DNA from: Eledone cirrhosa
Lineage: Eukaryota
Reading direction: 5' to 3'
Length of the DNA stretch: 64,000 nucleotides
Assembly: GCA_964016885.1 (NCBI GenBank)
Contig: OZ024743.1
Coordinates: forward strand, 302,746,001-302,810,000
Part shown: positions 28,723-61,335 of the stretch, piece by piece
Layout of the letters: the number at the start of each line of letters is the position of its first letter
How positions within the stretch are numbered: position 1 is the first letter of the stretch
The notes under the pieces: model-generated
Databases searched by the model: none
The model's input: only the letters and a program-made list of their open reading frames with translations
Told to the model about the DNA's origin: nothing
Translations under genes and position numbers: made by a program

Positions 28723-28924
28723 TTGTATTTACATACATTTTTTTCGACATGCGTATGCATGTGAACATATATTTTTATGCATATCTGTGAACGAAGTTAC
28801 TTACATATATACACACACCTAACTGTATTTTATTGATATATTTTGTGTATTTCATTGGTCAATTTGAACTCTGTTCCCAAACAGACCTGTAATTTTGAAT
28901 TGTTGTTATTATCAATAAATATAT

Positions 28925-35191: not shown

Positions 35192-38100
35192 TTTGCATTT
35201 ATCTTGCTTTATGTTTATACGAGTTATCACCAAGTCACAACCAGTGACCTCAAGAGACAACAAGGTCCGCCATGTTCAAGAAAGAACATACATATTCACA
35301 CATGCATCCTTAGTGTTTAGACTTGTGATGTACTTATATTGACAGGATCTTCCATAGTAAATGGGCAGTTCCCATTAGTACTATCTTTTGTATCTCTCCT
35401 ATACGCGGGTTTCCTGGGATTTGCGATAAGTAGTCGTTAGACCCCTTAGGTATCATTCCCAGAGCGCCTACAACCACTGGTATTGTTTTAGTTCTCAATT
35501 TCCACATTTTTCCAATTTCTATCTCCAGGTCCTTATACTTGCTCAATTTTTCAAATGTTTTTATAGATACATTCTTGTCTATTGGAACAGACATATCAAT
35601 TAGCAGGCATACCCTCCTGTGAAAGTCCTTCAACATTATATCAGGTCTATTTGCATCTATTTTTCGGTCTGTTTGGATGCTAAAGTTCCACAAGATTGAG
35701 ATGTGATCTTTTTCAAGTATGGGAGGTGGTTGATGTTCCCACCAATTCTTTTGATGGGGCAGGTCAAAATGCTTACACATTATCCAATGTATGTATTGTG
35801 CAGCTCTGTCATGCCTGTTTAGGTATTCGGTTGGAGCTATAGGACTGCACGTTGAAATTATATGGTCATTGGTCTCTGGTTGTTTTTTGCATACACGGCA
35901 TAATGGGCTGCACCCATTTTTTATTATGTTGGCTTGGTAATTTTTTGTTGGCAGACACTGATCTTGTGCGGATATAATCAGTCCTTCAGTCTCCGATTTC
36001 AATCCAGAGGATGCCAACCACTGATGGGTTAAAATTTTGTCAACATCAGGATTGTTAGCTCGCTCTGGGTATTTTCCATACAGAGGCTTTTCTTGCCATT
36101 TCTTAGCCAGTTTCTGTAGCAGTTCTTTCTTTGCAGTTACTTTTACCTGCTTTGCTTTTTCTGTGTTTTCCATTTCAGCAGTAAATGGGACTTCTGAAAT
36201 TTGTAGTCCATTACTGTATCTTTGTGCATCTTTTGTAATGGAATATGATCTTTTGGTGTTTTCGTGTTTCAAAACGAGTTTGATCATTCAATCATGTGAT
36301 TCCCTTAGATATGTGGATAATCCAATTGTTGCAGTTTTCAACGCAATGTCTAACTGGATTAACCCACGTCCTCCTTCTTTCCTAGGGAGATATATTCCAT
36401 CTATGTCTGCCTTAGGGTGATGCATTCTGTGCATGGTTAAGAATTTTCTGTTTTTTGTATCGAGCCTACGGATCTCTGTGCTTGACCAGTTGATGACATT
36501 GTAACTGTAGGTTACTACTGGTATGGCAAGTGTGTTTATGGCATCGATCCTATTCCTTGCATTCAATTCCGTTCTTAAGATTGCTCTGACTCTGCGGTAA
36601 CATTCCTTCCTTATCCTTTCCCTCATTGTCGAGTGCTTGATTCCGTCTCCTTCACAAACACCTAGATATTTGTAAGTTTTTTCTTGATCAAGCTCTCTTA
36701 TCACGTTCCCCCGATCAAGATTAATGTCTGAACTCTTCAGCAGCTTTCCTCTGGTGAACGTTGCTTTGGCGCATTTATCCAGTCCAAACACAATTTTAAT
36801 GTCATCACTGAACTGCTTCACAGTGGACAATAGCCCTTGTAATTGTTCATCATTCTTTGCAAATAGTTTCAGGTCATCCATGTAGAACAGGTGATTAATG
36901 GTTTTGTCATAGACTCTATATCCATGTTTTGTTTCATTGAGCATTTTACTTAATGGTATAAGTGCGATGCAGAATAAAAGCGGTGATAAAGAGTCACCCT
37001 GAAAAATTCCACAATTAATGTTAACTTCTCCAGCTTCCAGTGATTTTGTTTCACTATTCAAAAGGAGTGTCGTTCTCCATGTCCTCATACTGAATGACAA
37101 AAACCTCCTGACAACGGGGGATATTTTGAAAATCTCTAAACATTTTTCAATCCAACTGTGTGGCAAACTATCGAATGCTTTTTTATAATCTATCCAAGCA
37201 ATGGATAGATTTTTGTGTCTATTATGACAATCTTCCAGTATCATTTTGTTAACCAGAAGCTGATCCTTACAGCCATATGAGCCTCGTTTACACCCTTTCT
37301 GCTCAATGGGAAATAGGTCATTTGTTATCAGGTGGTCATATGTGTATTCAGTTAGGACTGATGTTAAAATGTTATACATTGTGGTCAAGCAGGTTATCGG
37401 TCTGTAATTTTTGGGATTGTTTGTCTCATCATTCTTCGGTAGCAGGATTGTAATGCCGTTAACTAGCCATGATGGTATCTTTTCTGGCTCCTTAACTAGT
37501 TCATTGTAAAGTTGGGCTAACAGCTCATGAGACTCTGTGAAGGCATTTATCCAAAAGTTTTGTATTTTGTCTTTTCCTGGAGATTTCCATTTGCTGGTTT
37601 TTCTTAGAGCCAAGCGCAGCTGTTCAACTGTTATATTTTCCCATGTTTGTTCTTCAAGGTGAGCTGTTTCTTTCATTTGTCTGTCTATCCATGGGGCATG
37701 TATGTTATGAACTTTTTTTTCGGCCCAGATCTTTTCCCAGAATTCTTGCACTTCCTCCGTGGGTGGTATTGATTTAGCAGTTATTGTTGACTTACCAATT
37801 TTTCTGTAGAATTTTCTTTGGTTGTTTTTGAACATATTACTGTCCTTATAGAATCTAGATCGTTTTTCAAAGCGCCTTATACGAGCAGCTTTGGCCGACA
37901 CTTTTTGCTTGATTGTTTCTATCAGCATGTCTATGTCACATGTTGATCTTATACTGTACTTTTTTTTCAATTTTCTAAGTTTAGTTTGTTTAACATGTTC
38001 ACCTACTTTATAGTTTGTTAAAATTTCTATGTCAGATCGGAGAATGTTTATTTGGCGATTGATGTTATCTTGCCAAGTAGATTTCTCGTGGGAATCCCTT

Positions 38101-40101
38101 TGTTTTTTCATCTTCACTCCACATAATTGAGTGGTGACTTTAGCCGATGCATAATAGAGATGATTTAAGTCAGTAATGTTTAGTTTGTTTGTGATGATAA
38201 TGTTTTTGAGAATTATGTTAGTCTTGTGTATTATCTTTTGGTTCAGTTTGGAGTTCTGGATCTTAGGGAGGGTGTCTCGTTGCCCCATGTCAGATTCTTT
38301 CATTTTCATCCATTCGATCATAATTTCATCCTTCAAGTTGGCAAGTTCATTCTCATTCATTTCTTTATCATTTACGATCTCATTATTTTCATTTGGAGTT
38401 TCATCCTGAGCATGCACTCCCTCCACTTTTTCGCTCCTTTCTTTAATTTGTTCTGTTGCCAGTGATTCCGCCCCAACCCTGGGATTCGAAGTGTTACAGT
38501 TTACCTCGTTTTCACTGACACATGCTTCATTTTCCCTTCGCTGACTTTGTGCTACTAGCTTGATCTGATCAATTTCTATATCAGTTAGTAACTTTTTTCT
38601 TACAATATTTCTTCGTATATTGGCTAGTTTGTTACTGTCAATATAGCCTCTGTTTTCGGGATGTTTCTTTTTCCAGTTGATATATGTTTGTTCTGTATTC
38701 GATGTATTTGATGGGTAGTACATGGTAGCGTATAAAGACTCAAGGACATCTTTATTATCTTCCCTTGACCATTTTTCTCTCTTTTTCTTTGGATTTCTTG
38801 GTGGTGAGCATGGAGGGCCAACAGTAGGAGTATTCCGGTTATGGGAGGTCTCCAGCTCCGAAGTGATGGGAAGGTTTGAACCATTAGCTGATTTTTCGAC
38901 CCCAGTCTGGTTCCTCTCCGAGGGACGCGGCCCTTTTTTACCCGGGTGACGGCCGATCCGGTATGAGATTTTATCATTAGACATTTACTTTATTTTGTCG
39001 CGTTTTATCCTTATCCGCCAAGGGGTAATCATTTCGTGTTACCACTTCTAGAACGAGTGTCAACCAAGACTAGAGGGGTCGTCCTCCCCTAGAGACATGG
39101 CTATTCCCCGCCGGCCGCCATCCCGGTATTTCTTGGTCACGGGGTTTTCTTTTTGTTGTTTTTTTTTAAATTGTTATTATCATGAGTGGTTCCTTAATGT
39201 GAGCATTGTGTGGCTTAAGAATGAAATTATTAATAATTGTCTCCACTCCAGGCACAAGGCCAGCAATCACCTAGTGCATTACAATAATATAATATACTTT
39301 TTGTTGTAGTTGGCTGTTATTGTTGTTGGCTATGTCGGTGGTGGTGCCGGGGCTTTTTATATCGTTGGTGAGGAAGGGGTGAGCCAGCAGTCCCATAACT
39401 GTTGACGTAGACGTTTGGCCGTGGCAAGGTCACCAAGTCAATCTATTTATATCTTTTGCTAGCCTCTCTCTTGTCTAGTGCTACCGCCACCTTCCCTTTT
39501 CTCTCTCAAGTTAACAGGGGAATAGTGTCAGTAGCATTGAATGAGTGGTGGCGGCGATGATGGATGTGGTGGGGTGGTGGCAGCGGTGGAGTTGTGGTTA
39601 CTGATATAGTATCTATGAGTTTGTGTTCGTATGTTTAATATATATTTTTTATTATATTTTGTGTTGACATATTCCCGTAAAATTTGAATTAAACATTTTT
39701 TAAAATTTGAGACAATAATAATAGTAATTATTATTATGATGCCGGTGAAATTGCCGTTATCTGGCTGTTATATTTAGTGTGATGGGATAGGTAGTGTATC
39801 AAGTTTCTGGTGTTGGTGAAATTGAAATTGCTGCTGTTCTATATAGTGTAGACAGAGGGTGTTTTGTTCCATTTATAACCATTTTCTTTTTTTTGAATAC
39901 AAAATATATAATACAAAATTGAATATTTGAGCGATACAACAATATAATATGGATCCGAAACTTTATGGGACCTCATTCGGTGCCTTTATGCAACATTTGT
40001 GCTAAGAATTGCTCTTTCACAATTGATTTAAATATGTTAAAAATCAAAAAACTTACGGGAGCATTTTCGTGACGTTCTACCACCTCGTGCGTCTTCTTCC
40101 C
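35192..40101 (-). mobile_element. R4/Dong-like family A, apparently full-length (~4.9 kb) copy (A3)
   Basis: ~1.1-kb 5' leader, single long ORF, short 3' UTR, (TAA)n at both ends. Confidence 0.95.
35334..38984 (-). pseudogene. R4-clade ORF (~1216 codons): Myb-like N-terminus, RT, CCHC knuckle, restriction-like endonuclease; one in-frame stop at 36288-36290
   Basis: KWSREDNK, KSPGKD, NYRPITCL, WIDYKKAFDS, GIFQGDSLSP, FYMDDLK, CRVC..ET..HIISTC, RPD..D..K..KY; TGA where A4 has TGG. Confidence 0.95.
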
Positions 40102-40126: not shown

Positions 40127-43100
40127 TTGCATTTATCTTGCTTTATGTTTATACGAGTTATCACCAAGTCACAACCAGTGACCTCAAGAGACAACAAGGT
40201 CCGCCATGTTCAAGAAAGAACATACATATTCACACATGCATCCTTAGTGTTTAGACTTGTGATGTACTTATATTGACAGGATCTTCCTTAGTATATGGGC
40301 AGTTCCCACTAGTACTATCTTTTGTATTTCTCCTATACGCGGGTTTCCTGGGATTTGAGATAAGTAGCCGTTAGACCCCTTAGGTATCATTCCCAGAGCG
40401 CCTACAACCACTGGTATTGTTTTAATTCTCAATTTCCACATTTTTCCAATTTCTATCTCCAGGTCCTTATACTTGCTCAATTTTTCAAATGTTTTTATAG
40501 ATACATTCTTGTCTATTGGAACAGACATATCAATTAGCAGGCATACCCTCCTTTTAAAGTCCTTCAATATTATATCAGGTCTATTTGCATCTATTTTTCG
40601 GTCTGTTTGGATGCTAAAGTTCCACAAGATTGAGATGTGATCTTTTTCAAGTATGGGAGGTGGTTGATGTTCCCACCAATTCTTTTGATGGGGCAGGTCA
40701 AAATGCTTACACATTATCCAATGTATGTATTGTGCAGCTCTGTCATGCCTGTTTAGGTATTCGGTTGGAGCTATAGGACTGCACATTGAAATTATATGGT
40801 CAATGGTCTCTGGTTGTTTTTTGCATACACGGCATAATGTGCTGCACCCATTTTTTATTATGTTGGCTTGGTAATTTTTTGTTGGCAGACACTGATCTTG
40901 TGCTGATATAATCAGTCCTTCAGTCTCCGATTTCAATCCAGAGTATGCCAACCACTGATGGGTTAAAGTTTTGTCAACATCAGGATTGTTATCTCGCTCC
41001 GGGTATTTTCCATTCAGAGGCTTTTCTTGCCATTTCTTAGCCAGTTTCTGTAGCAGTTCTTTCTTTGCAGTTACTTTTACCTGCTTTGCTTTTTCTGTGT
41101 TTTCCATTTCAGCAGTAAATGGGACTTCTGAAATTTGTAGTCCATTGCTGTATCTTTGTGCATCTTTTGTAATGGAATATGATCTTTTGGTGCTTTCGTG
41201 TTTCAAAACGAGTTTGATCATCCAATCACGTGATTCCCTTAGATATGTGGATAATCCAATTGTTGCAGTTTTCAACGCAATGTCTAACTGGATTAACCCA
41301 CGTCCTCCTTCTTTCCTAGGGAGATATATTCTATCTATGTCTGCCTTAGGGTGATGCATTCTGTGCATGGTTAAGAATTTTCGGATTTTTGTATCGAGCC
41401 TACGGATCTCTGTGCTTGACCAGTTGATGACATTGTAACTGTAGGTTACTACTGGTATGGCAAGCGTGTTTATGGCATCGATCCTATTCCTTGCATTCAA
41501 TTCCGTTCTTAAGATTGCTCTGACTCTGCGGTAACATTCCTTCCTTATCCTTTCCCTCATTGTCGAGTGCTTGATTCCGTCTCCTTCACAAACACCTAGA
41601 TATTTGTAAGTTTGTTCTTGATCAAGCTCTCTTATCACGTTCCCCGATCAAGATTAATGTCTGAACTCTTCAGCAGCTTTCCTCAGGTGAACGTTGCTTT
41701 GGCGCATTTATCCAGTCCAAACTCCATTTTAATGTCATCTCTGAACTGCTTCACAGTGGATAATAGCCCTTGCAATTGTTCATCATTTTTTGCAAATAGT
41801 TTCAGGTCATCCATGTAGAACAGGTGATTAATGGTTTTGTCATAGACTCTATATCCATGTTTTGTTTCATTGAGCATTTTACTTAATGGTATAAGTGCGA
41901 TGCAGAATAAAAGCGGTGATAAAGTGTCACCCTGAAAAATTCCACAATTAATGTTAACTTCTCCAGCTTCCAGTGATTTTGTTTCACTATTCAAAAGGAG
42001 TGTCGTTCTCCATGTCCTCATACTGAATGACAAAAACCTCCTGACAACGGGGGATATTTTGAAAATCTCTAAACATTTTTCAATCCAACTGTGTGGCAAA
42101 CTATCAAATGCTTTTTTATAATCTATCCAAGCAATGGATAGATTTTTGTGTCTATTATGACAATCTTCCAGTATCATTTTGTTAACCAGAAGCTGATCCT
42201 TACAGCCATATGAGCCTCGTTTACACCCTTTCTGCTCAATGGGAAATAGGTCATTTGTTATCAGGTGGTCATATGTGTATTCAGTTAGGACTGATGTTAA
42301 AATGTTATACATTGTGGTCAAGCAGGTTATCGGTCTGTAATTTTTGGGATTGTTTGTCTCATCATTCTTCGGTAGCAGGAATGTAATGCCGTTAACTAGC
42401 CATGATGGTATCTTTTCTGGCTCCTTAACTATTTCATTGTAAAGTTGGGCTAACAGCTCATGAGACTCTGTGAAGGCATTTATCCAAAAGTTTTGTATTT
42501 TGTCTTTTCCTGGGGATTTCCATTTGCTGGTTTTTCTTAGAGCCAAGCGCAGCTGTTCAACTGTTATATTTTCCCATGTTTGTTCTTCAAGGTGAGCTGT
42601 TTCTTTCATTTGTCTGTCTATCCATGGGGCATGTATGTTATGAACTTTTTCTTCGGCCCAGATCTTTTCCCAGAATTCTTGCACTTCCTCCTTGGGTGGT
42701 ATTGATTTAGCAGTTATTGTTGACTTACCAATTTTTCTGTAGAAGTTTCTTTGGTTGTTTTTGAACATATTATTGTCCGTATAGAATCTAGATCGTTTTT
42801 CAAAGCGCCTTATACGAGCAGCTTTGGCCGACACTTTTTGCTTGATTGTTTCTATCAGCATGTCTATGTCACATGTTGATCTTATACTGTACTTTTTTTT
42901 CAATTTTCTAAGTTTAGTTTGTTTAACATGTTCACCTACTTTATAGTTTGTTAAAATTTCTATGTCAGATCGGAGAATGTTTATCTGGCGATTGATGTTA
43001 TCTTGCCAAGTAGATTTCTCGTGGGAATCCCTTTGTTTTTTCATCTTCACTCCACATAATTGAGTGGTGACTTTAGCCGATGCATAATAGAGATGATTTA

Positions 43101-43961
43101 AGTCAGTAATGTTTAGTTTGTTTGTGATGATAATGTTTTTGAGAATTATGTTAGTCTTGTGTATTATCTTTTGGTTCAGTTTGGAGTTCTGGATCTTAGG
43201 GAGGGTGTCTCGTTCCCCCATGTCAGATACTTTCATTTTCATCCATTCGATCATAATTTCATCCTTCAAGTTGGCAAGTTCATTCTCATTCATTTCTTTA
43301 TCATTTACGATCTCATTATTTTCATTTGGAGTTTCATCCTGAGCATGCACTCCCTCCACTTTTTCGCTCCTTTCTTTAATTTGTTCTGTTGCCAGTGATT
43401 CCGCCCCAACCCTGGGATTCGAAGTGTTACAGTTTACCTCGTTTTCACTGACACATGCTTCATTTTCCCTTCGCAGACTTTGTGCTACTAGCTTGATCTA
43501 ATCAATTTCTATATCAGTTAGTAACTTTTTTCTTACAATATTTCTTCGTATATTGGCTAGTTTGTTACTGTCAATATAGCCTCTGTTTTCGGGATGTTTC
43601 TTTTTCCAGTTGATATATGTTTGTTCTGTATTCGATGTATTTGATGGGTAGTACATGGCAGTGTAGAAAGCCTCAAGGACTTCTTTATTATCTTCCCTTG
43701 ACCATTTTTCTCTCTTTTTCTTTGGATTTCTTGGTGGTGAGCATGGAGGGCCAACAGTAGGAGTATTCCGGTTATGGGAGGTCTCCAGCTCCGAAGTGAT
43801 GGGAAGGTTTGAACCATTAGCTGATTTTTCGACCCCAGTCTGGTTCCTCTCTGAGGGACGCGGCCCTTTTTTACCCGGGTGACGGCCGATCCGGTATGAG
43901 ATTTCATCATTAGACATCTACCTTATTTTGTCGCGTTTTATCCTTATCCGCCAAGGGGCAA

Positions 43962-43966
<5 letters not shown>
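40127..43966 (-). mobile_element. R4/Dong-like family A copy truncated in the 5' leader (A4)
   Basis: Near-identical to A3 from the 3' end to ~50 bp upstream of the ATG; TTA-flanked. Confidence 0.95.
40268..43917 (-). pseudogene. Family A RT-RLE ORF with stops at 43498 and 41683 and a 1-bp deletion at ~41643
   Basis: ORF pieces of 139, 558 and 456 aa are colinear with A3. Confidence 0.95.
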
Positions 43967-44002
<36 letters not shown>

Positions 44003-44439
44003 GTTGTTATTCCTTGAATCTCAGTCATTGATGTTGGTTAACTGGAAAGTCCGTTGGAATGAATATCAAGCCACTACCTGCAGCCTCAGATATTCAGGAC
44101 GTATCGGAGGGTTCTCGCTGTTCCAAGCAAGCATGCCTTTTGAAGCGTTCCAAAAAGCGTGAAGGGGCCGATTTTCTTTAACCATCCCTGGAAACTTTTG
44201 GAGATAGTCCCCAGTGCGCCTATGACAATCGGCATCACTTTGACTTCATGGCAGTTCCAAATCCTTTTCACCTCCCACTTTAGGTCCTGGTATCGGTTAA
44301 TTTTCTCCCTCTCCTTCTCTTGCACTCTCGTGTCGGACGGGCAGGCCACATCCACAATCAGACACGATCTTTTTTCTTTGTCCACAACCACCAGGTCAGG
44401 TCTATTGTGTTCCAATTTTTTGTCCGTCTGTATCCTAAA

Positions 44440-44441
<2 letters not shown>
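44003..44441 (-). mobile_element. R4/Dong-like family B, 3' fragment (B1)
   Basis: HNRPDLVVVD..VDVACP..EKINRYQDL..RYVLNI plus family B 3' UTR. Confidence 0.93.

Positions 44442-44509
<68 letters not shown>
44441..44509. repeat. (TTA)n spacer, longest of ~11 such tracts between array elements (others at ~32660, 34076, 34736, 35166, 40102, 43967, 47541, 53071, 56910, 61336)
   Basis: Direct reading. Confidence 0.95.
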
Positions 44510-44511
<2 letters not shown>

Positions 44512-44512
44512 A

Positions 44513-47500
44513 GCGACCTACGTATATGTACTATCGTGAGCTCCGCAAAGTTTTGTTGTTTTCAGTAGTTTAAAATGGTTATGGTTAACTGTATATAAGG
44601 GCACATACATTGTTTTCTGAAAAGGACACTCAAAAATTTAGAGGACACCCAAAAGGACACACAAAATTTAAACTTTTATAATTATCAAACAAAAATTTAT
44701 TAGAAAAGATCATGGACATCTCACAGTCACACCTTCCTCACAAACTAAACCTCACAATGACACCACCATTGTAAATATTACTACGTTTGCCAACACTAAA
44801 AATATAAGCAGTAGCAATATTTAAATTTGTCTCAGGCGGACATTCGTTTCCCGCCTTTACCAATGACTGCAGGTGTTAAAGCCGGACACCCCCACCATCA
44901 CCAAACCAACAACAGAAACAAAAGAAAAAAATAAATTATCTCGTGATATCGAAATGAATTCACCCAAAATGAACTTCCACACCGAAAACCAGTGACGCCA
45001 CCACCACCACAACTGAAACTAAAATTAACAATGACAAAAATAACGACAACAACAACAGAAACAATGAGCAAACCACCCTGTCTTTTGCCAGAGTAGCAAA
45101 AAAGTGCGAGGCAATCCAGGTAACTCAGCAGGAATTAGAAGAAGCCAAAAGATTGGTAAATAAAGATGGGTACAGGGTCAGCCTCAACCCCCCCCCCCAC
45201 CTAATAAAATGGAGCATCGGCGCCTATGCACCGTGTATTATCGGACGATTAACATAAAATCGCGCCGAGTAGAACGGGCATCCGAGTCCCAAATCCAAAA
45301 AGCTTTGGGACATGTGTGGGCAAAGAAAACCCGTGGGCAGAAATATGTAACCGTGGGCAGAAATATGGAACCGTGGACGTGTTCTTTGAAACACCAGAGG
45401 AAGCCAGAGAACACACCATGTCCCCATTAAGACGTGAAGACTTCACACTCGTCCTAAGCTATTGTGGCCAGAGACTCGTCAATATCAGGGTCACCCACAT
45501 TCCACCGGCCATCGAAATTCCCTGGCTAATAGCTGCCGTCCTCGCCGGCATCGAAGCCAACACCAAGATAATCGAAATAGCGAAAAAAAAGCAGGAGAAA
45601 TGGTCCGGATCTGGGATGGAGCTCCTGATCCAAGCGGACCAAATAAGCATTGAGGAGATCCCAGAGGTAATAGACCTTACTGAGGGCAGCCACCTCACCG
45701 TAATGGTCGAGGGCAGAGGGCCTAGATGTGTCGTTTGTGGAGAAGGAACCCACCTAAGGGCTTTCTGCCCTCAGGCTAAAAGGTTGAGGCACCTCTCTTG
45801 CCCTCCCCAGTGACTCAACCATCAATACCACCAGCAGCAGAGATGGCAGCAACAACTGTAGCAGCAACAACAGAAGCAACTGTAAGAGCAACAACCCCAG
45901 CAACAGTAGCAAAACACCACCACCACCACCCAATGCGCCAGAACTAGCACCAGCGCCTACACCATCCACCTCGCCACAACCAAAACCAACGCCTGTGGAG
46001 GATTTTCCACTCCCCGGCCTATCACAACTGGAGACAGATTGTGACGACGAGGAGTAGGAAACGGTATCAGGAAAAAAGAAAAAAAAGAAACCAAAAAAGA
46101 AAATATTCTCTTCCCTCCCCTTCCAAAAACAAAATTCAGAGGAAAACAAATAAACTATCAAACAAAAAGGTTAGGACAGATATGCCACCATCCACACCAG
46201 CATCACCAACCCCATCAGAAATGGGCGGAGAGGAAGCTATCCCTGAAAAGTCGAGCGGAAGTGGCTAACGCGTACATCGCGTCCGTCATCTACTACCGCC
46301 TGACCGTCGTACCTTGACCTAAGCCCCGCCAGACTGCGCTGGAGCGTTTGCTCTTTCGCTTTATGTGGAAGAGACGCGCTCCGATGGTCAGGCCGTCCAT
46401 CTGCTGTCAACACCCGCTAAGTGGAGGGCTGGGCAAGCCGTGGCTGATGATGCGCAGACACTCGCTCAGGCTACGACATCTCCACCTCTTCCTCGACGGT
46501 GATCAGGTGTGGTCGCCGTTTGCTAGACACGTCTTTCCGCAGCTCGTCTCCTTGACGGAGCTGCAGTCCTGGGTCAAGCGAAGACCGAGAGGGGGCGCTT
46601 GGAGACTGGAATGTCTTCAGGCGCTCACAGCCCTCGACCAATCGGGCAATGTGATCGGTGGAAACTCCACCTTGGCGTTCTATAGAGGATTAGTGGAGGG
46701 GTAGGGCGACGACGTACTTGGAGAAACTCTAGGCGTCGACGAAAATCAACTAGCCAATCTCTTCGGAGGGACTTTCGGGCCGGGGCTTATGGACAATTTC
46801 CAGAAATCCCTGGCCTGGCAGTGCTACCGAGGAGCTTTGCCAGTTCGGGATAAACTCTACAGGCATGGAGGTGCCGTCAGCCAGGCATGTCCGAGATGCA
46901 CGTAGGGCGACGAAACCGTCCTGCACGCACTCGTCCAGTGTCCGAGCATTGCTGACTTGTGGGTTTATGTCGAACACCTGCTGTCGCGTGTAGCACGGAT
47001 CCAGCTATCAGCTGTGTCCATCGTGAGGATTGCCCCGCCCAGTACCTTTAGCCGGGAAGGGCAGGCAGTTATTATCTGCCTGGTGGCCATGGAGAAAGAG
47101 ATAGTATGGTGGACACGTTTGAAAGGGCTGAAGTCGAACACTTACCTCTTCGGTGATGCCCTGATTAACTTTTTCAAGTTTCATTTGAAAAGGAAAATCA
47201 GGGTAGAGAGGGAAATGCTCTGTTCCCAGAATTTTGTTGAAAGATGGGTGAGAGAAGCAAGTATGGACCGAGTGAAAGGGCCTACTCTGAATATATGTCT
47301 GTAAATTAAAGGTGGAAACTGGGAGGGGGCACTTGCCTTGGTGGTCAGGGTGACAGTGGCTTTTTAATGGGTTTTCTCCACAAATGTCTCTCGGAAGTCT
47401 CCCCCCTATTGGGGAATTTTTCATTGTTATTTTTTTATTACATCCTCTGTTTTTTTACACGCAGATATGCCCATTTGTACCGTCCTATACTGTCCTTAAT

Positions 47501-47540
47501 GTCTACTTTATGTAAACCCTTGTGGTTAATAAAGAAAGCA
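44513..47540 (+). mobile_element. Tx1/L1-like LINE copy T1, internally deleted (ORF1 joined at ~46218 to post-RT ORF2)
   Basis: ORF1 knuckle CVVCGEGTHLRAFC; after the junction WAERKLSLKSRAEVAN, FRFMWK..P.V, GGLGKP, ACPRC..DETVLHALVQC; AATAAA then (TTA)n. Confidence 0.9.
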
Positions 47541-47546
47541 TTATTA

Positions 47547-47599
<53 letters not shown>

Positions 47600-47794
47600 G
47601 GCGACCTACGTAGTAAATCGTATCATCCTGAGCTCCGCAAAGTTTTGTTGTTTTAAGTTTTTTTAAATTGCCATTTATGGAAAACTGTTATTGTTAACTG
47701 TATATAAGTGCACATACATTGGTTTCTGAAAAGGACACTCAAAAAGATTGGGGCCTTGAGCCCAAAATTTAAACTTTATAATTATCAAACAAAA

Positions 47795-49754
47795 ATGTAT
47801 TTGAAAAAAATCATGGATGACTCAGAGTCACATCTTCCTCACAAACTAACACCTCACACCGACACCACCATTGTAAATATTACTACATTTGCCAACACTA
47901 AAAATATAAGCAGTAGCAATATTTTAAATTTTTCTAAGGTAGACATTCATTTCCCGCCATTACCAATGTCTGCAGGTGTTATAGCCGCCACCCCCACCAC
48001 CACCACCACACCGACAACAGAAACAAAAGAAAACAATAAATTAACTCGTGATATCGAAATTAATTCAACCAAAATGAACTCTTCCGCACCGAACACCACT
48101 GACACCACCACCACTACAACTGAAACTAAAATTAACAATAACAAAAATAAAGTTTACAACAACAGCAACAATGAAATTAAAAAAACTACCCTGAGTTGTG
48201 CCAGAGTAGAAAAAACGTGCGAAACATTCCAGGTAACTCAGGAGGAATTAGAAGAAGCCAAAAGAATGGTAAAGAAAGATGGGTACAGATCAGCCCCCCC
48301 CCCCCCCCTCCCACTCCCCACACACCTAATAAAATGGAGCACGTGGCCTATGCACGGTGTCATATCGGACAAATAACATAAAATCGCACCGAGTGGAACG
48401 GGCATCCAAGTCCTAAATGCAAAAACCTTTGGGAGATGTGTGGGCAAAAAAAACCCACATCAGACGTGGGCAGAAATATGGAACCGTGGACGTGTTCTTT
48501 GAAACACCACAGGGGGCCAGACAACACTCCATGACCCCATTAAGAAGTGACGACTTCACACTCGTCCCAACATATTGTGGCCATATCTTGTGAAGATCAG
48601 GGTGACACACGTTCCACCGGCCATCGAAATTCCCTGGCTAATTGCTGCCGTCCTCGCTGGCATCGAGGCTAACACCAAGATAATAGAAATAGCGAGAGAA
48701 AAGCAGGAGAACTGGTCCGGATCTGGGATGGAGCTCCTGATCCAAGCGGACCAAAGATACATTGAGGAGATCCCAGAGGTAATAGACCTCACTGAATGCA
48801 GCCACCTCACCGTAATCGTCGAGGGCAGAAGACCTAGGTGTGTCGTTTGTGGTGAAGGAACCCACCTAAGGGCTTTCTGCCCTCAGGCTAAAAGGTTGAG
48901 GCCACCTCTCTTACCCAAGCCAGTGATTAAACCATCAACAGGACCAGCAGCAGAAATGGCAGCAACAACTGTAGCAGCAACAACAGAAGCAAATGTAAGA
49001 GCAACAGCCCCAGCAACAGATGCAAAACCAACACCACTACCACCCAACGCGCCAGAACTAGCACCAGCGCCTATTCCATCCACCACGCCACAACCAAAAC
49101 CAACGCTTGTGGAGGATTTTCTACTCCCCTGCCTATTACATCTGGAGACAGATTGTGACGACGAGGAGTGGGAAACGGTATCAGGAAAAAAAAAAGAAGA
49201 AACCAAAAAACAAAAAATCCCCCCCCCCCCACTCCAAAAACAAAATACAGAGGGAAACAAATAAACTATCAAACAAAAAAGTTAGGACAGTTATGCTACC
49301 ATCCACACCAGCATCACCAAACCGATCAGCACAAACACCAACACCATCACCATCATTAACCCCAACACCACTATCACCAACACCACAAAAGTCACCAAAA
49401 AGCGAAACAGAAAGAAACCTACAACAAATGCAAACAAAACAAAACAACCAAAACGATACACACTACACAGCATTAAATTTGAACAACAACCAATTATTAA
49501 ACTACATCCAACACAACACAAGCATCACAGAAAAATACTACACAGCAACCCAAAAGTTCACACCATCTCCACTCATACAAATCACTCGCATCACACAGAA
49601 AACGTACATGACACTAAAACAAAAATTCCCCAATGATATAGGAAACTTCCGACACGTACTCTCCAGGAGGATTTATAAGGACATCCTTCCGGAGGAGCCC
49701 ACTAGCAGTGAAAAGGATGGAGAAATCATCCTTCCTCTACGAGAAGTTAGGTAA
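47795..49754 (+). pseudogene. Tx1-like ORF1 (CCHC zinc knuckle, Pro/Thr-rich), frameshifted
   Basis: RGQKYGTVDVFFETP, VKIRVTHVPP, RCVVCGEGTHLRAFCP. Confidence 0.8.
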
Positions 49755-52700
49755 GTGGACTTTCCCAACTTGTCCACTCCATTTCAACATGACCTCACTA
49801 GAATAGGCAGCATAAATGCGCGTGGCTTGGGGTCGTCACGGAAGCAGGGCCACCTGCCCAACGACCTCAGGTCACTAAACATAGATGTAGTGGCCATCAG
49901 CGAGACCAGAATCTCCGAAGCACGGGCCTTCGCACCGATCTTCGGCGGCTACGATGTGTACGCCTCTCCCAGGCGTCCGGGATCGGAGGGAGGAGTTGCT
50001 GTGCTTTTTCGGAAAGGTTTGGATCTCGCCATACGGGCCATCTTACTGGGCCCAGAAGGTAAGTTGGTGGTGCTGGACGTGACCAGCGGAGAAGGGCAAG
50101 CTTTCAATATAGTGGCCGTCTAATACCCGACAGGAGCAGGGCACCCTGATTTATTTCGGCGTCTAGAGACCTTCTTGGAACGTCCCGCTCTTTAGTGTTA
50201 GTGGGCGACTGGAACGGGATCTTAGATGCACGCTGGGACTGTGTGGGATTACCGGATAGGGGAGGAGAGTGCAAGAGTCTCACCAACCTGCTCAGGCGTT
50301 TTGAACTGTCTGACAGGTACCGATTGGATTTCCCGAATGTGCTAATGTGGACTTGGACAAATCGCATAGGGTCATCCAGATCATATCTAGATAGAGTATT
50401 TTGTAGGGAAATAGTTAGGTCTAGCATAGGCTGTCCACAATTCAAGATAGTCAGCTACGCCGACCACAAATTCGTGATCTGTGTGCTTGACTTAAATAGG
50501 CTTAATAGACGAGGACCTGGCTACTGGAAGCTAAACGCGTCCTTACCAGCGCGCAAGGCCTACAGAGACCGGATTAGCGAATTAGTTAAGCGGGCGTTGA
50601 CGGGGGCCATCGTCAACAACAAGTAGTGGTTTGCTCTGAAAAGAGCAATTAGAATAGAGTCCATTAGGTTTAGTAAGGCTTTAGCAATAGAGAAAAAATA
50701 GAGCAGAGGAAAATTAGTTAGAAAATTAGACGAGGCGCTCAGCAAAGGCATTGCGACCGACGTACTTGCGGAGATAATGGGCCCTTGACCAATTCTTCAA
50801 TGCAAAGCATGAAGGCTACGTTGTCAGAGCTAGGGTGGGTGCTCTCACACTCTCAGACACGAGGGGACGAAAGCCGTTCAATTGACCCGAGTGGCGGAGG
50901 CGCGTCGTGGCAACAAAGCCACGATCCGTTATTTGCTGGACCACGACGGGCGCATGCTACTCGATCCCGCCAAATGTGTGAAGCTTTTCAGCGACTCTTC
51001 GCTCAAATGTTCGGGGGAAGCGGCGGTCCGGATCGAGGGATGGACTTTAGTGTCTACCTTGACGGACTACGCGGATCTCGGCCACTGAGTCATAGTGTTG
51101 CGTAAAGCCGATAACAGCCGCTGAAGTACGGGAGGCAATGACTGGCTGCACAAGGGGTAAATCTCCTGGTTTGGATGGTCTGTGAACTTTACGTACAGAT
51201 GCCAGAATTGTTCGGAGACCTTTTGGCGGACGTCTACTGCAACTGGCAACAGAACGGGAGAATTCCCAGCTCTGTGAGCCGATGAGCGGTCGCGCTGCTG
51301 AGAAAGGATCCAAACAAGGGGGATAACGTAGATAATTTCAGGCCCATAACTCTGCTAAACACAGAGTTCAAGATGTTGGCCAAGGTGCTAGCAAAGAGTT
51401 TGGCGCTTGTCGTTGGTGGTCTGGTGGGAGAGTCGCAGTCATGCGCCTTTCCCGACAGATCCAGCCACGACAACCTCCACCTCATGCGATGCATCGTAGA
51501 GAGGGTAGCTAGAGATCCTGGCACGGGTGGGTCCTTGATCAATTTAGATCAGTCGAAAGCTTTCGATAGGGTCGACCATCGTTACCTAGCGGCAGTCCTG
51601 AGGGCGGCTGGCTTGGGCCCGTCTTCAGAGGCTGGATCGTTGCCATGCACAGCGACAACTGCTCTGTGGTAAGAGTGAACGGTCACCTTTCGGAACCGTT
51701 CAACATCATGCGCTCGGTCCGCCAAGGATGTCTCCTCTCGTCCCTCTTGCACGTATTGACTCTCGAGCCATTACTGCACAAACTGGAGACGTTGAGGCGC
51801 GTCCCGCGCAAACTAGGATGCGGAAGATCCGTCTCAGCATATGCGGACGATGTCACCGTAGTGGTGTCGAACGCCAAACACATCGAGGCGATCGGCACTA
51901 CACTAAGAGAATACGAAGCGGTGACAGGAGCAATGATCAACCAGGAAAAGTCAGTGGGCCTGCTGCTCGGCACCTGGAGAGGCAGGTCCATGCCGTCCAA
52001 CAGCGTCGTCGGACGCTGGACGGACGGAGCAGGTGTGGTCGCCGTTTGCTAGACACATCTTTCCCCAGCCCGTCTCCTTGCAGTCCTGGGTCAAGCGAAG
52101 ACCGAGAGGGAGCGCTTGAAGACTGGAATGTATTCAGGCGCTCACAGCCCTCGACCAATCGGGCAATGCGATCAGTGGACACTCCACCTCGGCGTTCTAA
52201 AGATGAGTAGTGGAGGGGAAGAGCGACTACGTACTTAGGGAAACTCTAAGCGTCGACGAAAATCAAGTAGCCAATCTCTTCGGAAGAACTTTCGGGCCGG
52301 GGCCTATGGACAACTTCCAGAAATCGCTGGCCTGGCAGTGCTACCGAGGAGCTTTGCCAGTCCTGGATAAACTCTACAGGCATAGAGGTGCCGTCTACCG
52401 GGCATGTCCGAGATACGCGCAGGGCGGCGAAACCGTCCTGCACGCACGCGTTCAGTGTCCGAGAATTGCTGACTTGTGGGTTTATGTCGAACACCTGCTG
52501 TCGCGTGTAGGATGGATCCGGCTATCAGCTGAGTCCATCGTGAGGAATGCCCCGCCCTCTTCCTTTAACCGGGAAGGGCAGGCAGTTTTTATCTGTCTTG
52601 TGGCCACGTCGAAAGAGATAGTATGATGGATACGTTTGAAAGGGCTGAAGACGAGCAATTACCTCTTCGGTGATGCCCTGATTAACTTTTTTCAAATTTC

Positions 52701-52822
52701 ATTTGAAAAGGAAAATCAGGGTAGAGAGGGAAGTGCTCTGTTCCCAGCATTTTGTTGAAAGATGGGTGAGAGAAGCAAGTATGGCCCGAGTGAATGGGCC
52801 TACTATGAGTATGTGTCTGTAA
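49755..52822 (+). pseudogene. Tx1-like ORF2: AP endonuclease + RT + zinc motif; many disruptions and a deletion at ~52030
   Basis: SINARGL, AISET, VGDWN, WTWTN..SYLDR, ADHK, GPGYWKLN, KSPGLDG, FRPITLLN, DQSKAFDRVDH, RQGC, AYADDV. Confidence 0.92.
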
Positions 52823-53067
52823 ATTAAAGGTGGAAAACTGGGAGAGGGCACTTGCCCTGGTGGTCAGGGTCACTGTGGCCTTTTAATGGGCTTTCCCCAC
52901 AAATGTCTCTCGGAAGTCTCCCTCCTATTGGGGAATTTTTCATTGTTATTTTTTTCATAACATCCTCTGTTTTTTTAGTCGCAGACATGCCCATTTGTAC
53001 AGTCCTGGATTGTCCTGTACTGTCCTTAATGTTTACTTTATGTAAAAACTTGTGGTTAATAAATAAA

Positions 53068-53114
<47 letters not shown>

Positions 53115-56100
53115 GTTGTTATTCCTTGAATCTCAGTCATTGATGTTGGTTAACTGGAAAGTCCGTTGGATTGAATATCAAGCCACTACCTGCAGCCTCA
53201 GATATTCAGGACGTATCGGAGGGTTCTTGCTGTTCCAAGCAAGCATGCCTTTTGAAGCGTTCCAAAAAGCGTGAAGGGGCCGATTATCTTTAACCATCCC
53301 TGGAAACCTTTGGAGATAGTCCCCAGTGCGCCTATGACAATCGGGATCACTTTGACTTCATGGCAGTTCCAAATCCTTTTCACCTCCCACTTTAGGTCCT
53401 GGTATCGGTTAATTTTCTCCCTCTCCTTCTCTTGCACTCTCGTGTCGAACGGGCAGGCCACATCCACAATCAGGCACGATCTTTTTTCTTTGTCCACAAC
53501 CACCAGGTCAGGTCTATTGTGTTCCAGTTTTTTGTCCGTCTGTATCCTAAAATCCCACAGCACCTTCACCTGACTGTTCTCCATCACCGCCTCTGGCCTA
53601 TGCTCATACCATTTCTCAGAATGTGGTAGATTGTTTACTTTGCACAGGTGCCAGTGGATCACCCTGCCCATCACATCGTGTCTCCAGCCCTTATAGTGGG
53701 TCTGGGCTAGGTGTTTACACTCGGACACAATGTGAGCCACAGTCTCCTCTCTCTCTCCACAGATCCTGCACAGTGGGCTAGCCTCCTCCTTGTAGATATG
53801 GTGCTTCAACCACTTCGTTTTGAGGGCCTGCTCCTGCGCAGCCATTAGCATTCCTTCTGTAGCCTTTTTGAGGTCTCCTCTTCTCAACCAGTTCCATGTC
53901 TGTGGATCTCTAAATTCAGTTTTCTCAAAGAAGGTGCTATGAAGGGATTTTCCCTTAAGGCTGCTCTTCCTCCTTGATGTTATTTCCTCCTTGGACATCC
54001 CCTGGCCTACTGTCCCCTCCTTCAGTACAGTTCTGAGCATTGGCTCCTTACTATAGGTCACGTATTTGTATAGGTTGTTTTTCTCCATCTGAACACAGTC
54101 CTCTATGCTGATAAGACCTCTTCCACCCTCAGATCTCCTTAGGTAGAGTCTATCGACATCACTCCTCTTGTGGAACATGTTGTAGATAGTCAATAGCTTC
54201 CTACTCTTCCTATCCATTTCTTTTTGTTCAGCAACATTCCATCTCAGAATTCCCGCACTGTACCTAATAATAGACACAGCTCGGGAATTTACTGCGCTTA
54301 TGGCATTTCTGCTGTTCAGATGTGACTTCAATACGCTCCTTACTCTCCGAATGTATTCAGTTCTTAACAATTCCTTCATTTTTTTGTTCTTTATGCCATC
54401 AGCCTCCAGAACGCCCAAATACTTGTATCCTTCCTCAGAGTCAATTTCCTTTATCATCTCACCTGTTGGTATCTGGATCCCGTTACTTCTGCTCAACCTA
54501 CCCCTCTTCATCACAATGACTCCACATTTACCAATACCAAACTGCATACATATATCACTGCTGAAAATACGGACAGTGTCAACAAGCACATCCAACTCCT
54601 TCTCACTTTTCCCGAAGAGCTTAAGATCGTCCATGAAGAGGAGGTGATTGATGGTAATCTCTCCCCTTCCCAACTTGTATCCTGCTCTCACTTTTCGCAG
54701 CATAATGGTCAAGGGCATCAGGGCAAGGACAAACAACAGAGGGGACAGGCTATCTCCCTGGAAGATACCTCTCTTGATCTTCACGCTTCCCAAGGATACT
54801 CCAGTTGATGTCAACTCTGTCTCCCAGGACCCCATACTCCTGCCTAGCAACTGTCTGATGTTATCTGCCACCCTGAAGATCTCCAGGCTTTTGGTGATCC
54901 AGGAATGAGGCACCATGTCAAATGCCTTTCTGTAGTCTATCCATCCCATGGCAAGATCAGTGTGTCTCCTCCTGCAATTCCCCATTACCATCTTATCAAT
55001 AAGTAACTGGTCCTTTGTACCACGTGACTTCTTTCGGCATCTTTTCTGTTCGTCCGGTAACAAGTTGTTTGTGTGGAGGTGATGGTAGATTTCCTCAGAC
55101 ACAATGCTCGTCAACAGTTTCCACATTACGGACAGACATGTGATAGGTCTATAGTTGGTAACATCATTACCCTTGATTCGGTCTTTCATTATCAGAACTG
55201 TGGTACCTTTTGTCAACCACTCTGGCACCTCACCCGACACCAAGCAGTCATTGAACATGGCCGTCAGCTTCGGGTGGAGGGATGTTAAATGTTTAATCCA
55301 ATACCCCTGCACACCATCTGGGCCTGGTGATTTCCAGTTGGTTAGTTTTTTGGCCTGTCCCTTAAGAGTTTCAACTGTGATACTCAAATCAGTTTGTTGT
55401 TGTGCCTGCTCACCGATCTCCCTCTGTACTGTCTCAATCCACCCTGCCTGGGCATTGTGTCTAACATCCTGCTCCCATATTCCTCCCCAGAATGTTTTAG
55501 TTTGCTCCGCCCCAGGGATCAAGTCGTTGCCTCTTTCTTTCCCCTCAAGCTGTCCAAACAGCATCTTCTGGTTGTTGTCGAACATGCGGTTCTGTTTATA
55601 CTGACTGACTCTGTTCTCGTATCGCCTGATTTTTGCACTCTTTGCTACAATGCGTTGCTTCAGTTCCTCTATGATAATATTTAGCTTTTTCCTCCTAGTT
55701 TTGTATTTTATTTCCAGTCTATTTTTAGTGCCTATGTTTTTTAGTGTCCCATTCAGTAGTGACTCAAGCTTTCCTATGTCATTTCTCATTTCCCCGATTT
55801 GCCCACTCAGTCGCTTCTTCCACCACGGCTCTGCTCTTTCTTGTCTGTTGTTTCCTCTCGCTTTTATACCAAGTAGTTTCCTCACCGTATTTGCTGTTGC
55901 TTTGAGGATATTGTTGCACTGGTGAAGGCTCCTCGGCTCAAGGTATGGGATGACTTTGTTTACATTAGCTGTTGTTTCTTTTAACTTTTTCCTGTCTACA
56001 AATCTTAGGTTCATAGGTCTCCCACTATCATTGTTCAATTAATCTACCACTAAATTTAGGATGTCAACCGAATCTTGTCCTAGCCCGTCAGCATTCATCT

Positions 56101-56897
56101 CCTCAGTGGCCGTATCTCTGTTCCAGGTATTATTTATCTCAGTATTCAGATTATTGTCTGCTTCGGGTGGTTCCTCCGTTCTCAGGACCTCTTCACCTTC
56201 ATTTCCCACTGGCTCGCTTGTCTGGCATACTACACCCGCCATCTCCAAGCCATTCTCTCTGCTCAGTTCCTCCAGTTCCAGATCGCTTATCCGTCCATTA
56301 GTTCTTATTACCCGAACCTGCCCGGCCAATTTTTGTTCATCTAATTTAAATAAACCAATCTCGTTCCAGATGTTATGCATCCGTCTCCTGTAGCCCCTCT
56401 CCTTGGGGTTACTGTTCAGGTAACATTGCATAACAGTTCTATTCAATTCTTTCGTCCAGTTGGTTCTGGCCCCTTTCCTTCTTCTCCTTCCTCCAACATC
56501 AGCAGTATTTGGTTGACAGTCAGGTTCCTGCTGCTGAGCCAGGGGGCACCTGTTGGGTGAGAGTCTGTCACATGACGTTCTAGTCTCCATTTCACCGTTA
56601 TTCGAACTGTTTATGTTCGATATTTAAACACTCTTATCGAGGATTGGCGAATGTATGGTTACATATCCATCTGTCGATCCGCCATTCCACTTGGCCCTTG
56701 TGTGGCATTATCACCACGCTGTATACGAACACACATAAACAAACAAACACACAGGCAGAAAGGGCCCCAAAAATGAATAAGCATAAGTTTCATTGTAATG
56801 TAGTGTTCGAATGTCTGACTTAGTTTTTGTTTTTTAAGTTTTAGTTTTTTCCCCCTCTTCTCTGTCCGTCCGCCTGCTTCTCTCTTCATTCTTATTT
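53115..56897 (-). mobile_element. R4/Dong-like family B copy (B2), truncated in the 5' leader
   Basis: Complete coding region plus ~300 bp of leader; TTA-flanked. Confidence 0.95.
53198..56590 (-). pseudogene. Family B RT-RLE ORF (~1130 codons), single in-frame stop at 56039-56041
   Basis: NWTKELN (Myb-like), KSPGPDG, WIDYRKAFDM, GIFQGDSLSP, LFMDDLK, CRIC..ETVAH..SEC, RPD..D..EK..RY. Confidence 0.95.
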
Positions 56898-56928
56898 ATT
56901 TTTTTTTTTTATTATTATTATTATTATT

Positions 56929-59900
56929 GTTATTGTTATTCCTTGAATCTCAGTCATTGATGTTGGTTAACTGGAAAGTCCGTTGGATTGAATATCAAGC
57001 CACTACCTGCAGCCTCAGATATTCAGGACGTATCGGAGGGTTCTTGCTGTTCCAAGCAAGCATGCCTTTTGAAGCGTTCCAAAAAGCGTGAAGGGGCCGA
57101 TTTTCTTTAACCATCCCTGGAAACTTTTGGAGATAGTCCCCAGTGCGCCTATGACAATCGGGATCACTTTGACTTCATGGCAGTTCCAAATCCTTTTCAC
57201 CTCCCACTTTAGGTCCTGGTATCGGTTAATTTTCTCCCTCTCCTTCTCTTGCACTCTCGTGTCGAACGGGCAGGCCACATCCACAATCAGGCACGATCTT
57301 TTTTCTTTGTCCACAACCACCAGGTCAGGTCTATTGTGTTCCAGTTTTTTGTCCGTCTGTATCCTAAAATCCCACAGCACCTTCACCTGACTGTTCTCCA
57401 TCACCGCCTCTGGCCTATGCTCATACCATTTCTCAGAATGTGGTAGATTGTTTACTTTGCACAGGTGCCAGTGGATCACCCTGCCCATCACATCGTGTCT
57501 CCAGCCCTTATAGTGGGTCTGGGCTAGGTGTTTACACTCGGACACAATGTGAGCCACAGTCTCCTCTCTCTCTCCACAGATCCTGCACAGTGGGCTAGCC
57601 TCCTCCTTGTAGATATGGTGCTTCAACCACTTCGTTTTGAGGGCCTGCTCCTGCGCAGCCATTAGCATTCCTTCTGTAGCCTTTTTGAGGTCTCCTCTTC
57701 TCAACCAGTTCCATGTCTGTGGATCTCTAAATTCAGTTTTCTCAAAGAAGGTGCTATGAAGGGATTTTCCCTTAAGGCTGCTCTTCCTCCTTGATGTTAT
57801 TTCCTCCTTGGACATCCCCTGGCCTACTGTCCCCTCCTTCAGTACAGTTCTGAGCATTGGCTCCTTACTATAGGTCACGTATTTGTATAGGTTGTTTTTC
57901 TCCATCTGAACACAGTCCTCTATGCTGATAAGACCTCTTCCACCCTCAGATCTCCTTAGGTAGAGTCTATCGACATCACTCCTCTTGTGGAACATGTTGT
58001 AGATAGTCAATAGCTTCCTAGTCTTCCTATCCATTTCTTTTTGTTCAGCAACATTCCATCTCAGAATTCCCGCACTGTACCTAATAATAGACACAGCTCG
58101 GGAATTTACTGCGCTTATGGCATTTCTGCTGTTCAGATGTGACTTCAATACGCTCCTTACTCTCCGAATGTATTCAGTTCTTAACAATTCCTTCATTTTT
58201 TTGTTTTTTATGCCATCAGCCTCCAGAACGCCCAAATACTTGTATCCTTCCTCAGAGTCAATTTCCTTTATCATCTCACCTGTTGGTATCTGGATCCCGT
58301 TACTTCTGCTCAACCTACCCCTCTTCATCACAATGACTCCACATTTACCAATACCAAACTGCATACATATATCACTGCTGAAAATACGGACAGTGTCAAC
58401 AAGCACATCCAACTCCTTCTCACTTTTCCCGAAGAGCTTAAGATCGTCCATGAAGAGGAGGTGATTGATGGTAAGCTCTCCCCTTCCCAACTTGTATCCT
58501 GCTCTCACTTTTCGCAGCATAATGGTCAAGGGCATCAGGGCAAGGACAAACAACAGAGGGGACAGGCTATCTCCCTGGAAGATACCTCTCTTGATCTTCA
58601 CGCTTCCCAAGGATACTCCAGTTGATGTCAACTCTGTCTCCCAGGACCCCATACTCCTGCCCAAAACTGTCTGATGTTATCTGCCACCCTGAAGATCTCC
58701 AGGCTTTTGGTGATCCAGGAATGAGGCACCATGTCAAATGCTTTTCTGTAGTCTATCCATCCCATGGCAAGATCAGTGTGTCTCCTCCTGCAATTCCCCA
58801 TTACCATCTTATCAATAAGCAACTGGTCCTTTGTACCACGTGACTTCTTTCGGCATCCTTTCTGTTCGTCCGGTAACAAGTTGTTTGTGTGGAGGTGATG
58901 GTAGATTTCCTCATACACAATGCTCGTCAACAGTTTCCACATAACGGGCAGACATGTGATAGGTCTATAGTTGGTAACATCATTACCCTTGATTCGGTCT
59001 TTCATTATCAGAACTGTGGTACCTTTTGTCAACCACTCTGGTACCTCACCCGACACCAAGCAGTCATTGAACATGGCCGTCAGCTTCGGGTGGAGGGATG
59101 TTAAATGTTTAATCCAATACCCCTGCACACCATCTGGGCCTGGTGATTTCCAGTTGGTTAGCTTTTTGGCTTGCCCCTTAAGAGTTTCAACTGTGATACT
59201 CAAATCAGTCTGTTGCTGTGCCTGCTCACCGATCTCCCTCTGTACTGTCTCAATCCACCCTGCCTGGGCATTGTGTCTAACATCCTGCTCCCATATTCCT
59301 CTCCAGAATGTTTTAGCTTGTTCCGCCCCAGGGATCAAGTCGTTGCCTCTTTCTTTCCCCTCAAGCTGTCCAAACAGCATCTTCTGGTTGTTGTCGAACA
59401 TGCGGTTCTGTTTATACTGACTGACTCTGTTCTCGTATCGCCTGATTTTTGCACTCTTTGCTACAATGCGTTGCTTCAATTCCTCTATGATAATATTTAG
59501 CTTTTTACTCCTAGTTTTGTATTTTATTTCCAGTCTATTTTTAGTGCCTATGTTTTTTAGTGTCCCATTCAGTAGTGACTCAAGCTTTCCTATGTCATTT
59601 CTCATTTCCCCGATTTGCCCACTCAGTCGCTTCTTCCACCACGTCTCTGCTCTTTCTTGTCTGTTGTTTCCTCTCGCTTTTATACCAAGTAGTTTCCTCA
59701 CCGTATTTGCTGTTGCTTTGAGGATATTGTTGCACTGGTGAAGACTCCTCACCTCAAGGTATGGGATGACTTTGTTTACGTTAGCTGTTGTTTCTTTTAA
59801 CTTTTTCCTGTCTACAAATCTTAGGTTCATAGGTCTCCCACTATCATTGTTCAACTCATCTACCACTAAATTTAGGATGTCAACCGAATCTTGTCCTAGC

Positions 59901-61331: not shown

Positions 61332-61335
<4 letters not shown>
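56929..61335 (-). mobile_element. R4/Dong-like family B copy (B3) with ~930-bp 5' leader
   Basis: Near-identical to B2; the leader extends further; TTA-flanked. Confidence 0.95.
57015..60406 (-). pseudogene. Family B ORF with a 1-bp frameshift at ~58662; ACG where B2 has its start ATG
   Basis: The 544-aa and 549-aa pieces overlap at the frameshift; compared with B2. Confidence 0.93.

Follow-up and report, generated by a model that had tools for sequence, protein, structure and literature searches.

A genome-wide L1/Tx1-type LINE family in (ATT)n tracts of Eledone cirrhosa, inverted relative to neighbouring R4/Dong-type elements

Each conceptual element of the system described here has a precedent: microsatellite-specific Tx1 elements, the convergence of APE-type and RLE-type lineages (Keno and Utopia), and the sharing of a target on opposite strands (TRAS and SART). 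Kibi is specific for (TC)n, Koshi for (TTC)n and crocodilian Tx1 families for (TTCC)n or (TTTC)n (PMC4494074, PMC3812793). Like these, the family reported here, named the T family, is an APE-type LINE specific for a microsatellite; compared by description and not by sequence, it differs in its ATT unit, its octopod host and its thousands of 5′ ends. Dong elements occupy (TAA)n in the silkworm, mosquito and the snail Biomphalaria (PMC3812793), and Dong-R4 is listed for Octopus vulgaris (PMC13282606). The microsatellite is the same, and the R4a and R4b elements of the present locus behave as Dong does, whereas the T family has an N-terminal APE and two ORFs and faces the opposite way. Keno (APE) and Utopia (RLE), both inserted in U2 snRNA genes (PMC4640811), likewise show one target common to APE and RLE lineages, but at the same 3′ flank, whereas T-family and R4 elements are inverted and stack in the same microsatellite tracts of one genome. 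TRAS1 and SART1 enter one repeat, (TTAGG)n, in opposite directions, and the TRAS1 endonuclease nicks at a T-A step (PMC7265360), as the T-family enzyme probably does; both, however, are APE elements with a telomeric target, in contrast to APE versus RLE on dispersed repeats. Finally, ‘L1-Tx1’ elements of Octopus vulgaris comprise 13 recently active families, 421 insertions and 80 consensus sequences (PMC13282606). As far as the published account goes, their class, size and recent activity fit the T family, but the word ‘target’ is absent from its text and supplement as examined. No ATT- or TAA-specific Tx1 family was found in the literature searched, which included portions of PMC3747384, PMC4494074 and PMC3812793 and left Repbase and most subscription papers outside its scope; the portion of PMC9115989 consulted makes no mention of Tx1.

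The window is a stretch of 64,000 nucleotides of contig OZ024743.1 (positions 302,746,001 to 302,810,000). Its last 32 kb form a stack of non-LTR retrotransposons with ATT tracts between the members:

35193-40101 and 40127-43964, minus strand: two R4b copies with RT, CCHC and RLE motif, separated by (TAA)8 in their own sense
44001..44441, minus strand: 5′-truncated R4-type (RLE) element of family R4a, matching the 3′-terminal 444 bases of the R4a copy 56927-61334 at 98%
44440..44511, plus strand: (ATT)23 and AAT, the tract upstream of T1, read from the sequence
44512..47539, plus strand: T1, with an A-type 5′ end, part of ORF1 and ORF2 residues about 779-1139
47540..47599, plus strand: (ATT)20 with one ATC, both the 3′ flank of T1 and the 5′ flank of T2, read from the sequence
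47600..53069, plus strand: T2, a near full-length A-type copy with ORF1 and ORF2 broken
49789..52822, plus strand: T2 ORF2 remnant (APE, RT, C-terminal zinc finger), from Pfam Exo_endo_phos and RVT_1 pieces and tblastn with an intact ORF2
53070..53114, plus strand: (ATT)15, the 3′ flank of T2 and also, in the (TAA)n reading, that of the next R4a copy
53115..56908, minus strand: R4a copy with RT, CCHC finger and a restriction-like endonuclease motif (RPD...D...K)

T1 and T2 are both dead, decayed copies. One large internal deletion near 46217 has cost T1 the end of ORF1, the APE and most of the RT, and its 3′ UTR ends AATAAAGAAAGC. T2 carries frameshifts, stops and a deletion at 52027 that removes ORF2 residues about 748-872; the YADD of its RT lies at 51840-51851. 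Their 86-90% identity rules out a recent tandem duplication. According to the initial annotation, both copies start at the same base directly after the repeat, end in AATAAA...CA and lie on the strand opposite the R4 elements. The strand assignment is confirmed by sequence and family mapping (T1 and T2 on plus, the flanking R4-type elements on minus). The shared start position also holds, one base earlier than proposed (GGCGACC at 47600); T1 does not directly follow a perfect repeat (44512 is A, and the last unit is AAT). The 3′ ends read AATAAA(G/T)AAA(G/T)C at 47539 and 53069, the final A of the proposed motif being the first base of ATT. The 5′ junction of the R4a copy at 44001..44441 opens into the tract preceding T1. 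Elsewhere in the window, positions 26313-28774 (minus strand) hold two long open frames of 449 and 349 aa, neither of which has a Pfam match above cut-off; the C-terminal part resembles a Penelope-type GIY-YIG region. From the window alone the evidence for targeting is thin, since the 5′ tract of T2 is the 3′ tract of T1; the genome-wide counts are far beyond chance.

ATT targeting is real, strong and genome-wide. Across the whole genome, exact 24-base matches to the A-type 5′ end stand directly after ATTATTATT in 2,090 of 2,240 cases (93.3%), and exact 26-base matches to the younger B-type end in 1,564 of 1,604 (97.5%). The background for ATTATTATT, sampled in 20 fixed 10-kb stretches of the genome, is 119 of 400,040 positions (0.03%). 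Both shares in one repeat lie far above the 20% used as target-specificity criterion in PMC4494074. An ATT tract with unrelated sequence beyond it precedes all of the best 30 matches to the T2 5′ end (one being T2 itself) and all of the first 30 5′-end pattern matches by position. Upstream runs of 6-20 ATT units are found in 40/40 young copies, 29 of which have neither another family copy nor a SINE in front. On the 3′ side, ATT continues at 82 of 90 loci, does not at four, and four were not parsed. The flank check that the initial annotation had called for gave ATT on both sides and did not show random 5′ flanks; (TTA)n as a 3′ tail only is rejected. A few flanks are off-pattern. At L046, ATT is followed by (CTT)n, at L069 the 3′ flank starts in (AAT)n, and at L121 a relative's 5′ end lies head-to-head across (AAT)n; the loci whose 3′ flank continues as (AAT)n or (CTT)n are few (L069, L112 and L046).

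The family was traced in its own genome (3.0 Gb) by a search that took one copy's APE region as query. Among the 142 matches listed, most share one score, with open frames of 1,195-1,204 codons. The young-copy sample consists of 40 of these matches, all on the plus strand and none adjacent to another. Its members are about 6.03 kb long, with a median of 99.5% identity to one of their number; ORF2 is intact, the APE, YADD and zinc-finger catalytic motifs are kept in 40/40, and an ORF1 frame of at least 700 aa is present in 35/40. Young ORF2 matches Pfam PF03372, PF00078 and PF13966 (APE, RT and zf-RVT) above cut-off and aligns with residues 60-911 of human L1 ORF2p (E 1e-52). The young copies have a B-type 5′ half and T1 and T2 are of A type; between the types, ORF1 is 45% identical and the ORF2 region about 93% identical as DNA. 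A CCHC knuckle (C-x2-C-x4-H-x4-C) was read in ORF1 of both types, and a Pfam search of ORF1 gave no zinc-knuckle match. An ORF1 with a CCHC zinc knuckle is a feature of the Tx1 clade. Traits of the L1 group are present as well, namely two ORFs, variable 5′ truncation and target duplication (loci L166 and L037). Judged by its sequence, the family is an L1/Tx1-type non-LTR retrotransposon.

Its closest named relatives are from Argonauta hians (73% identity in RT, and 60% for another protein), which fits an octopod host; other, unnamed protein relatives are 40-53% identical. The RT scores 275 bits against a coral protein automatically named TX1 and 111-113 against human L1. In a 36-row RT tree built without curated Tx1 references, the family groups with Argonauta (100/99) beside unnamed proteins (100/100), and the backbone is open. 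The description as a Tx1-like APE LINE is therefore upheld for an APE-RT element of L1/Tx1 type, while strict Tx1 membership is favoured by the RT scores and left open by the backbone of the tree. In a metagenome scan, 64 loci were found, most of them with 21-37% identity over their best segment, and an ATT array was present in 0/8 inspected.

Several side observations concern the family at large. At least four distinct 5′ ends follow ATT in the same register, GAATGCC, GGCGACC, GGTTATC and GGTCTAAG (L061:1515, L089:1737, L083:2260 and L061:7549); the first three were traced to T-family ORF2, and because three different 5′ ends lead to the same ORF2 family, swapping of 5′ UTR and ORF1 within it is suggested. 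Truncation within about 1.6 kb was seen at 1/30 young 3′ ends (L181-L210), which is unusual for an L1-type element. Tandem copies at L190-L192 and L195/L196 lie about 6.06 kb apart with identical spacers, one even imperfect, which makes duplication or the copying of concatemers a likely origin of some arrays. Runs X5 and X6, which are coded as other organisms, contain long contigs that match the young element (L168:760-7520) at about 99% identity; these contigs may stem from close relatives, mixed samples or transfer. In the limpet Patella caerulea, eleven related ORF2 entries (protein P0036 cluster) bear neighbouring locus tags, which suggests a tandem, possibly target-specific array.

Copies that lack their 5′ end tell whether the upstream repeat is a mere leader. 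The 97 distinct 3′-anchored loci comprise 42 with the 5′ end outside the fetched DNA, 21 full-length copies and 34 truncated or deleted ones. Upstream ATT is present in 21/21 full-length loci and, at a score of at least 10/12, next to 17/34 truncated or deleted copies (16 by script and L193 hand-corrected), against a background of 0.69%. Split by length post hoc, positives number 17/24 below about 940 bases and 0/10 above. As ATT thus adjoins copies without a 5′ end, the repeat is not only a leader. For about nine positives, the tract in front is formed by the tail of a relative or of the SINE. The 17 ATT-negative copies, which include all 10 longer ones, speak against targeting at face value; they may be later deletions, since several of them abut the inside of an adjacent element and deletions are common in the T family. 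Microhomology at 17 truncated junctions (mean 1.4 versus 0.29 expected) carries little weight, because over-extended alignments in two cases have probably raised the value.

The same tracts are occupied from the other side. R4a and R4b have a single ORF in which RT precedes a CCHC and a PD..D/ExK-type endonuclease motif, assigned from sequence motifs and not from a tree with named R4 elements; the motif definition follows in part PMC4640811. In their own sense, 16/20 R4b 5′ ends come after (TAA)n (at least 10/12 in the last 12 bases), and a TAA run lies close upstream in 20/20; for R4a, the TAA flank was read in the window and in flanks only. The R4 clade carries an RLE. Beyond the tract, the next element is an inverted R4-type copy at 34/80 flanks of young copies (19 5′ and 15 3′ sides). 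The remaining neighbours are co-oriented family members (nine 5′ and eight 3′ sides), co-oriented SINEs (two 5′ and five 3′ sides) and unclassified elements (10 5′ and 12 3′ sides); a co-oriented R4 beside the 40 young copies was found at none of the 80 flanks. The proposed opposition between an APE-RT LINE in (ATT)n and RLE-bearing R4/Dong-type elements is thus corroborated, all 34 being inverted and the RLE motifs present. Each insertion of either family would turn one tract into two, and mixed inverted stacks such as that of the window would build up as a result.

An abundant 184-base SINE shares the ATT tail. It has a CCTTGTG...GAAAC end (L160:7180-7363, L211-L240), and its 3′ end resembles that of the T-family LINE. 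A near-perfect ATT run is found upstream in only 4/30 copies. Target duplications, present in 22/30, are of 9-20 bases apart from one pure repeat and begin with ATTA in 16/22, mostly at short ATTA sites. Such lax targeting means that an ATT tail by itself does not place an element in long tracts. Given the same ATT start and orientation, the SINE is a candidate partner of the LINE and may use the T-family enzyme with a laxer choice of site.

On balance, T1 and T2 are decayed members of an L1/Tx1-type LINE family found in (ATT)n genome-wide, and we consider it reasonably probable that the family gets there through an APE that nicks (AAT)n at the T-A step, with RNA repeat units likely pairing with the target to fix the register. 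Its machinery is seen intact in young copies: an ORF1 with a CCHC knuckle and an ORF2 that combines APE, RT and zinc finger. Where the sense strand is (ATT)n, target-primed reverse transcription would use (AAT)n as primer strand, and the 3′ junction C|ATT would put the nick at AAT^AAT. The 3′-AAT primer would pair with AUU at the RNA end. A second cut would fall at least about 18-20 bases downstream, so that several repeat units are duplicated; it is visible in part at L166, where a 14-base non-repeat stretch recurs on both sides, the duplication measures at least 20 bases and a long copied tail is absent, and at L037, where a non-repeat target is duplicated. The minimum 5′ run of six units agrees with the L166 duplication length. 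Full-length RNAs would start in or just inside the upstream repeat, the cDNA end then annealing to the target and giving the invariant ATT|G junction. All full-length junctions share a register, ATT followed by G, with at least six units, whereas truncated ones vary in phase and often have 3-4 units; the difference in register is expected if full-length RNA carries upstream repeat that anneals. Annealing of a co-transcribed target has been proposed for some Drosophila R1 elements (PMC2718515), and the endonuclease is the main target determinant in related systems (PMC4494074, PMC7265360). In the T-family APE, the DNA-reading loop of the L1 endonuclease aligns without insertion and with no visible specificity feature. 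R4/Dong-type elements would apply their RLE to the opposite strand of these tracts, the nicked strand being (TTA)n by the standard priming model.

The role given to the enzyme could instead fall to the RNA. An ordinary L1-like T-A nicker might owe its specificity to a long AUU tail, if only (AAT)n nicks pair and prime. RNA-target pairing has been named as a possible filter for L1 (PMC1950540), and 3′ runs exceed 5′ runs in 36/40 young copies (median 16.5 versus 9), an excess that fits equally an RNA-derived tail and a nick close to the left end of the tract. The SINE points the same way insofar as a few bases at its short ATTA sites (16/22) would suffice for the T-family enzyme, if the SINE uses it. 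It also points the other way: SINE copies often lie within reach of their own long tails and still follow a near-perfect ATT run in only 4/30 cases. At L166, moreover, the duplicated non-repeat target begins right after the element end, with only ATTAT of repeat. We rate selection by the tail as rather unlikely.

Two further readings dispense with a search for tracts. If the RNA bore (AUU)n at its two ends and these were copied into short ATT(A) sites, the element would make its own tracts. The single register and the six or more units of full-length junctions, set against the variable and shorter truncated ones, agree with this, as does the result at one young locus, where contigs of four public runs gave no joint skipping the element among the best-supported joints; with no empty site seen, duplication length and RNA-added units are not separable. 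Tract-making is nevertheless quite improbable, as half of the copies without a 5′ end (17/34) still adjoin ATT, 34/80 flanks are common to R4-type elements that themselves sit in (TAA)n, and compound (CTT)n(ATT)n(CTT)n arrays, e.g. L151, also contain insertions. Survival or tandem multiplication in repeat stacks, with no active targeting at all, could draw on the tandem runs with identical spacers (L190-L192, L195/L196) and on the 9/40 young copies that follow another copy. It is largely refuted and carries a very small probability in our estimate, because 1,604 B-type ends with 97.5% in-register ATT and unrelated flanks, in copies 99.5% identical, leave no time for passive sorting.

A wider version of endonuclease-led targeting is offered tentatively, as possible rather than probable. 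An active and undescribed octopod L1/Tx1 lineage would pick (ATT)n by its endonuclease; the repeat on both RNA ends would let both primings proceed by annealing, hence mostly full-length, in-register inserts; the abundant SINE would be mobilized; and with RLE-type R4 elements on the other strand, a self-seeding two-strand system would build much of the ATT microsatellite content of the genome.

Collectively, these data add ATT (sense strand) to the short list of targets of microsatellite-specific APE LINEs, and the sequences would place APE and RLE enzymes within one genome on opposite strands of a shared repeat. The question of whether the nuclease or RNA-DNA pairing chooses the site can draw on more than 100 copies whose endonuclease region is identical and whose ORF2 is open, with a built-in contrast in a SINE of similar tail and lax targeting. 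The data also carry a warning, namely that in such genomes many an ATT microsatellite is a retroelement junction.
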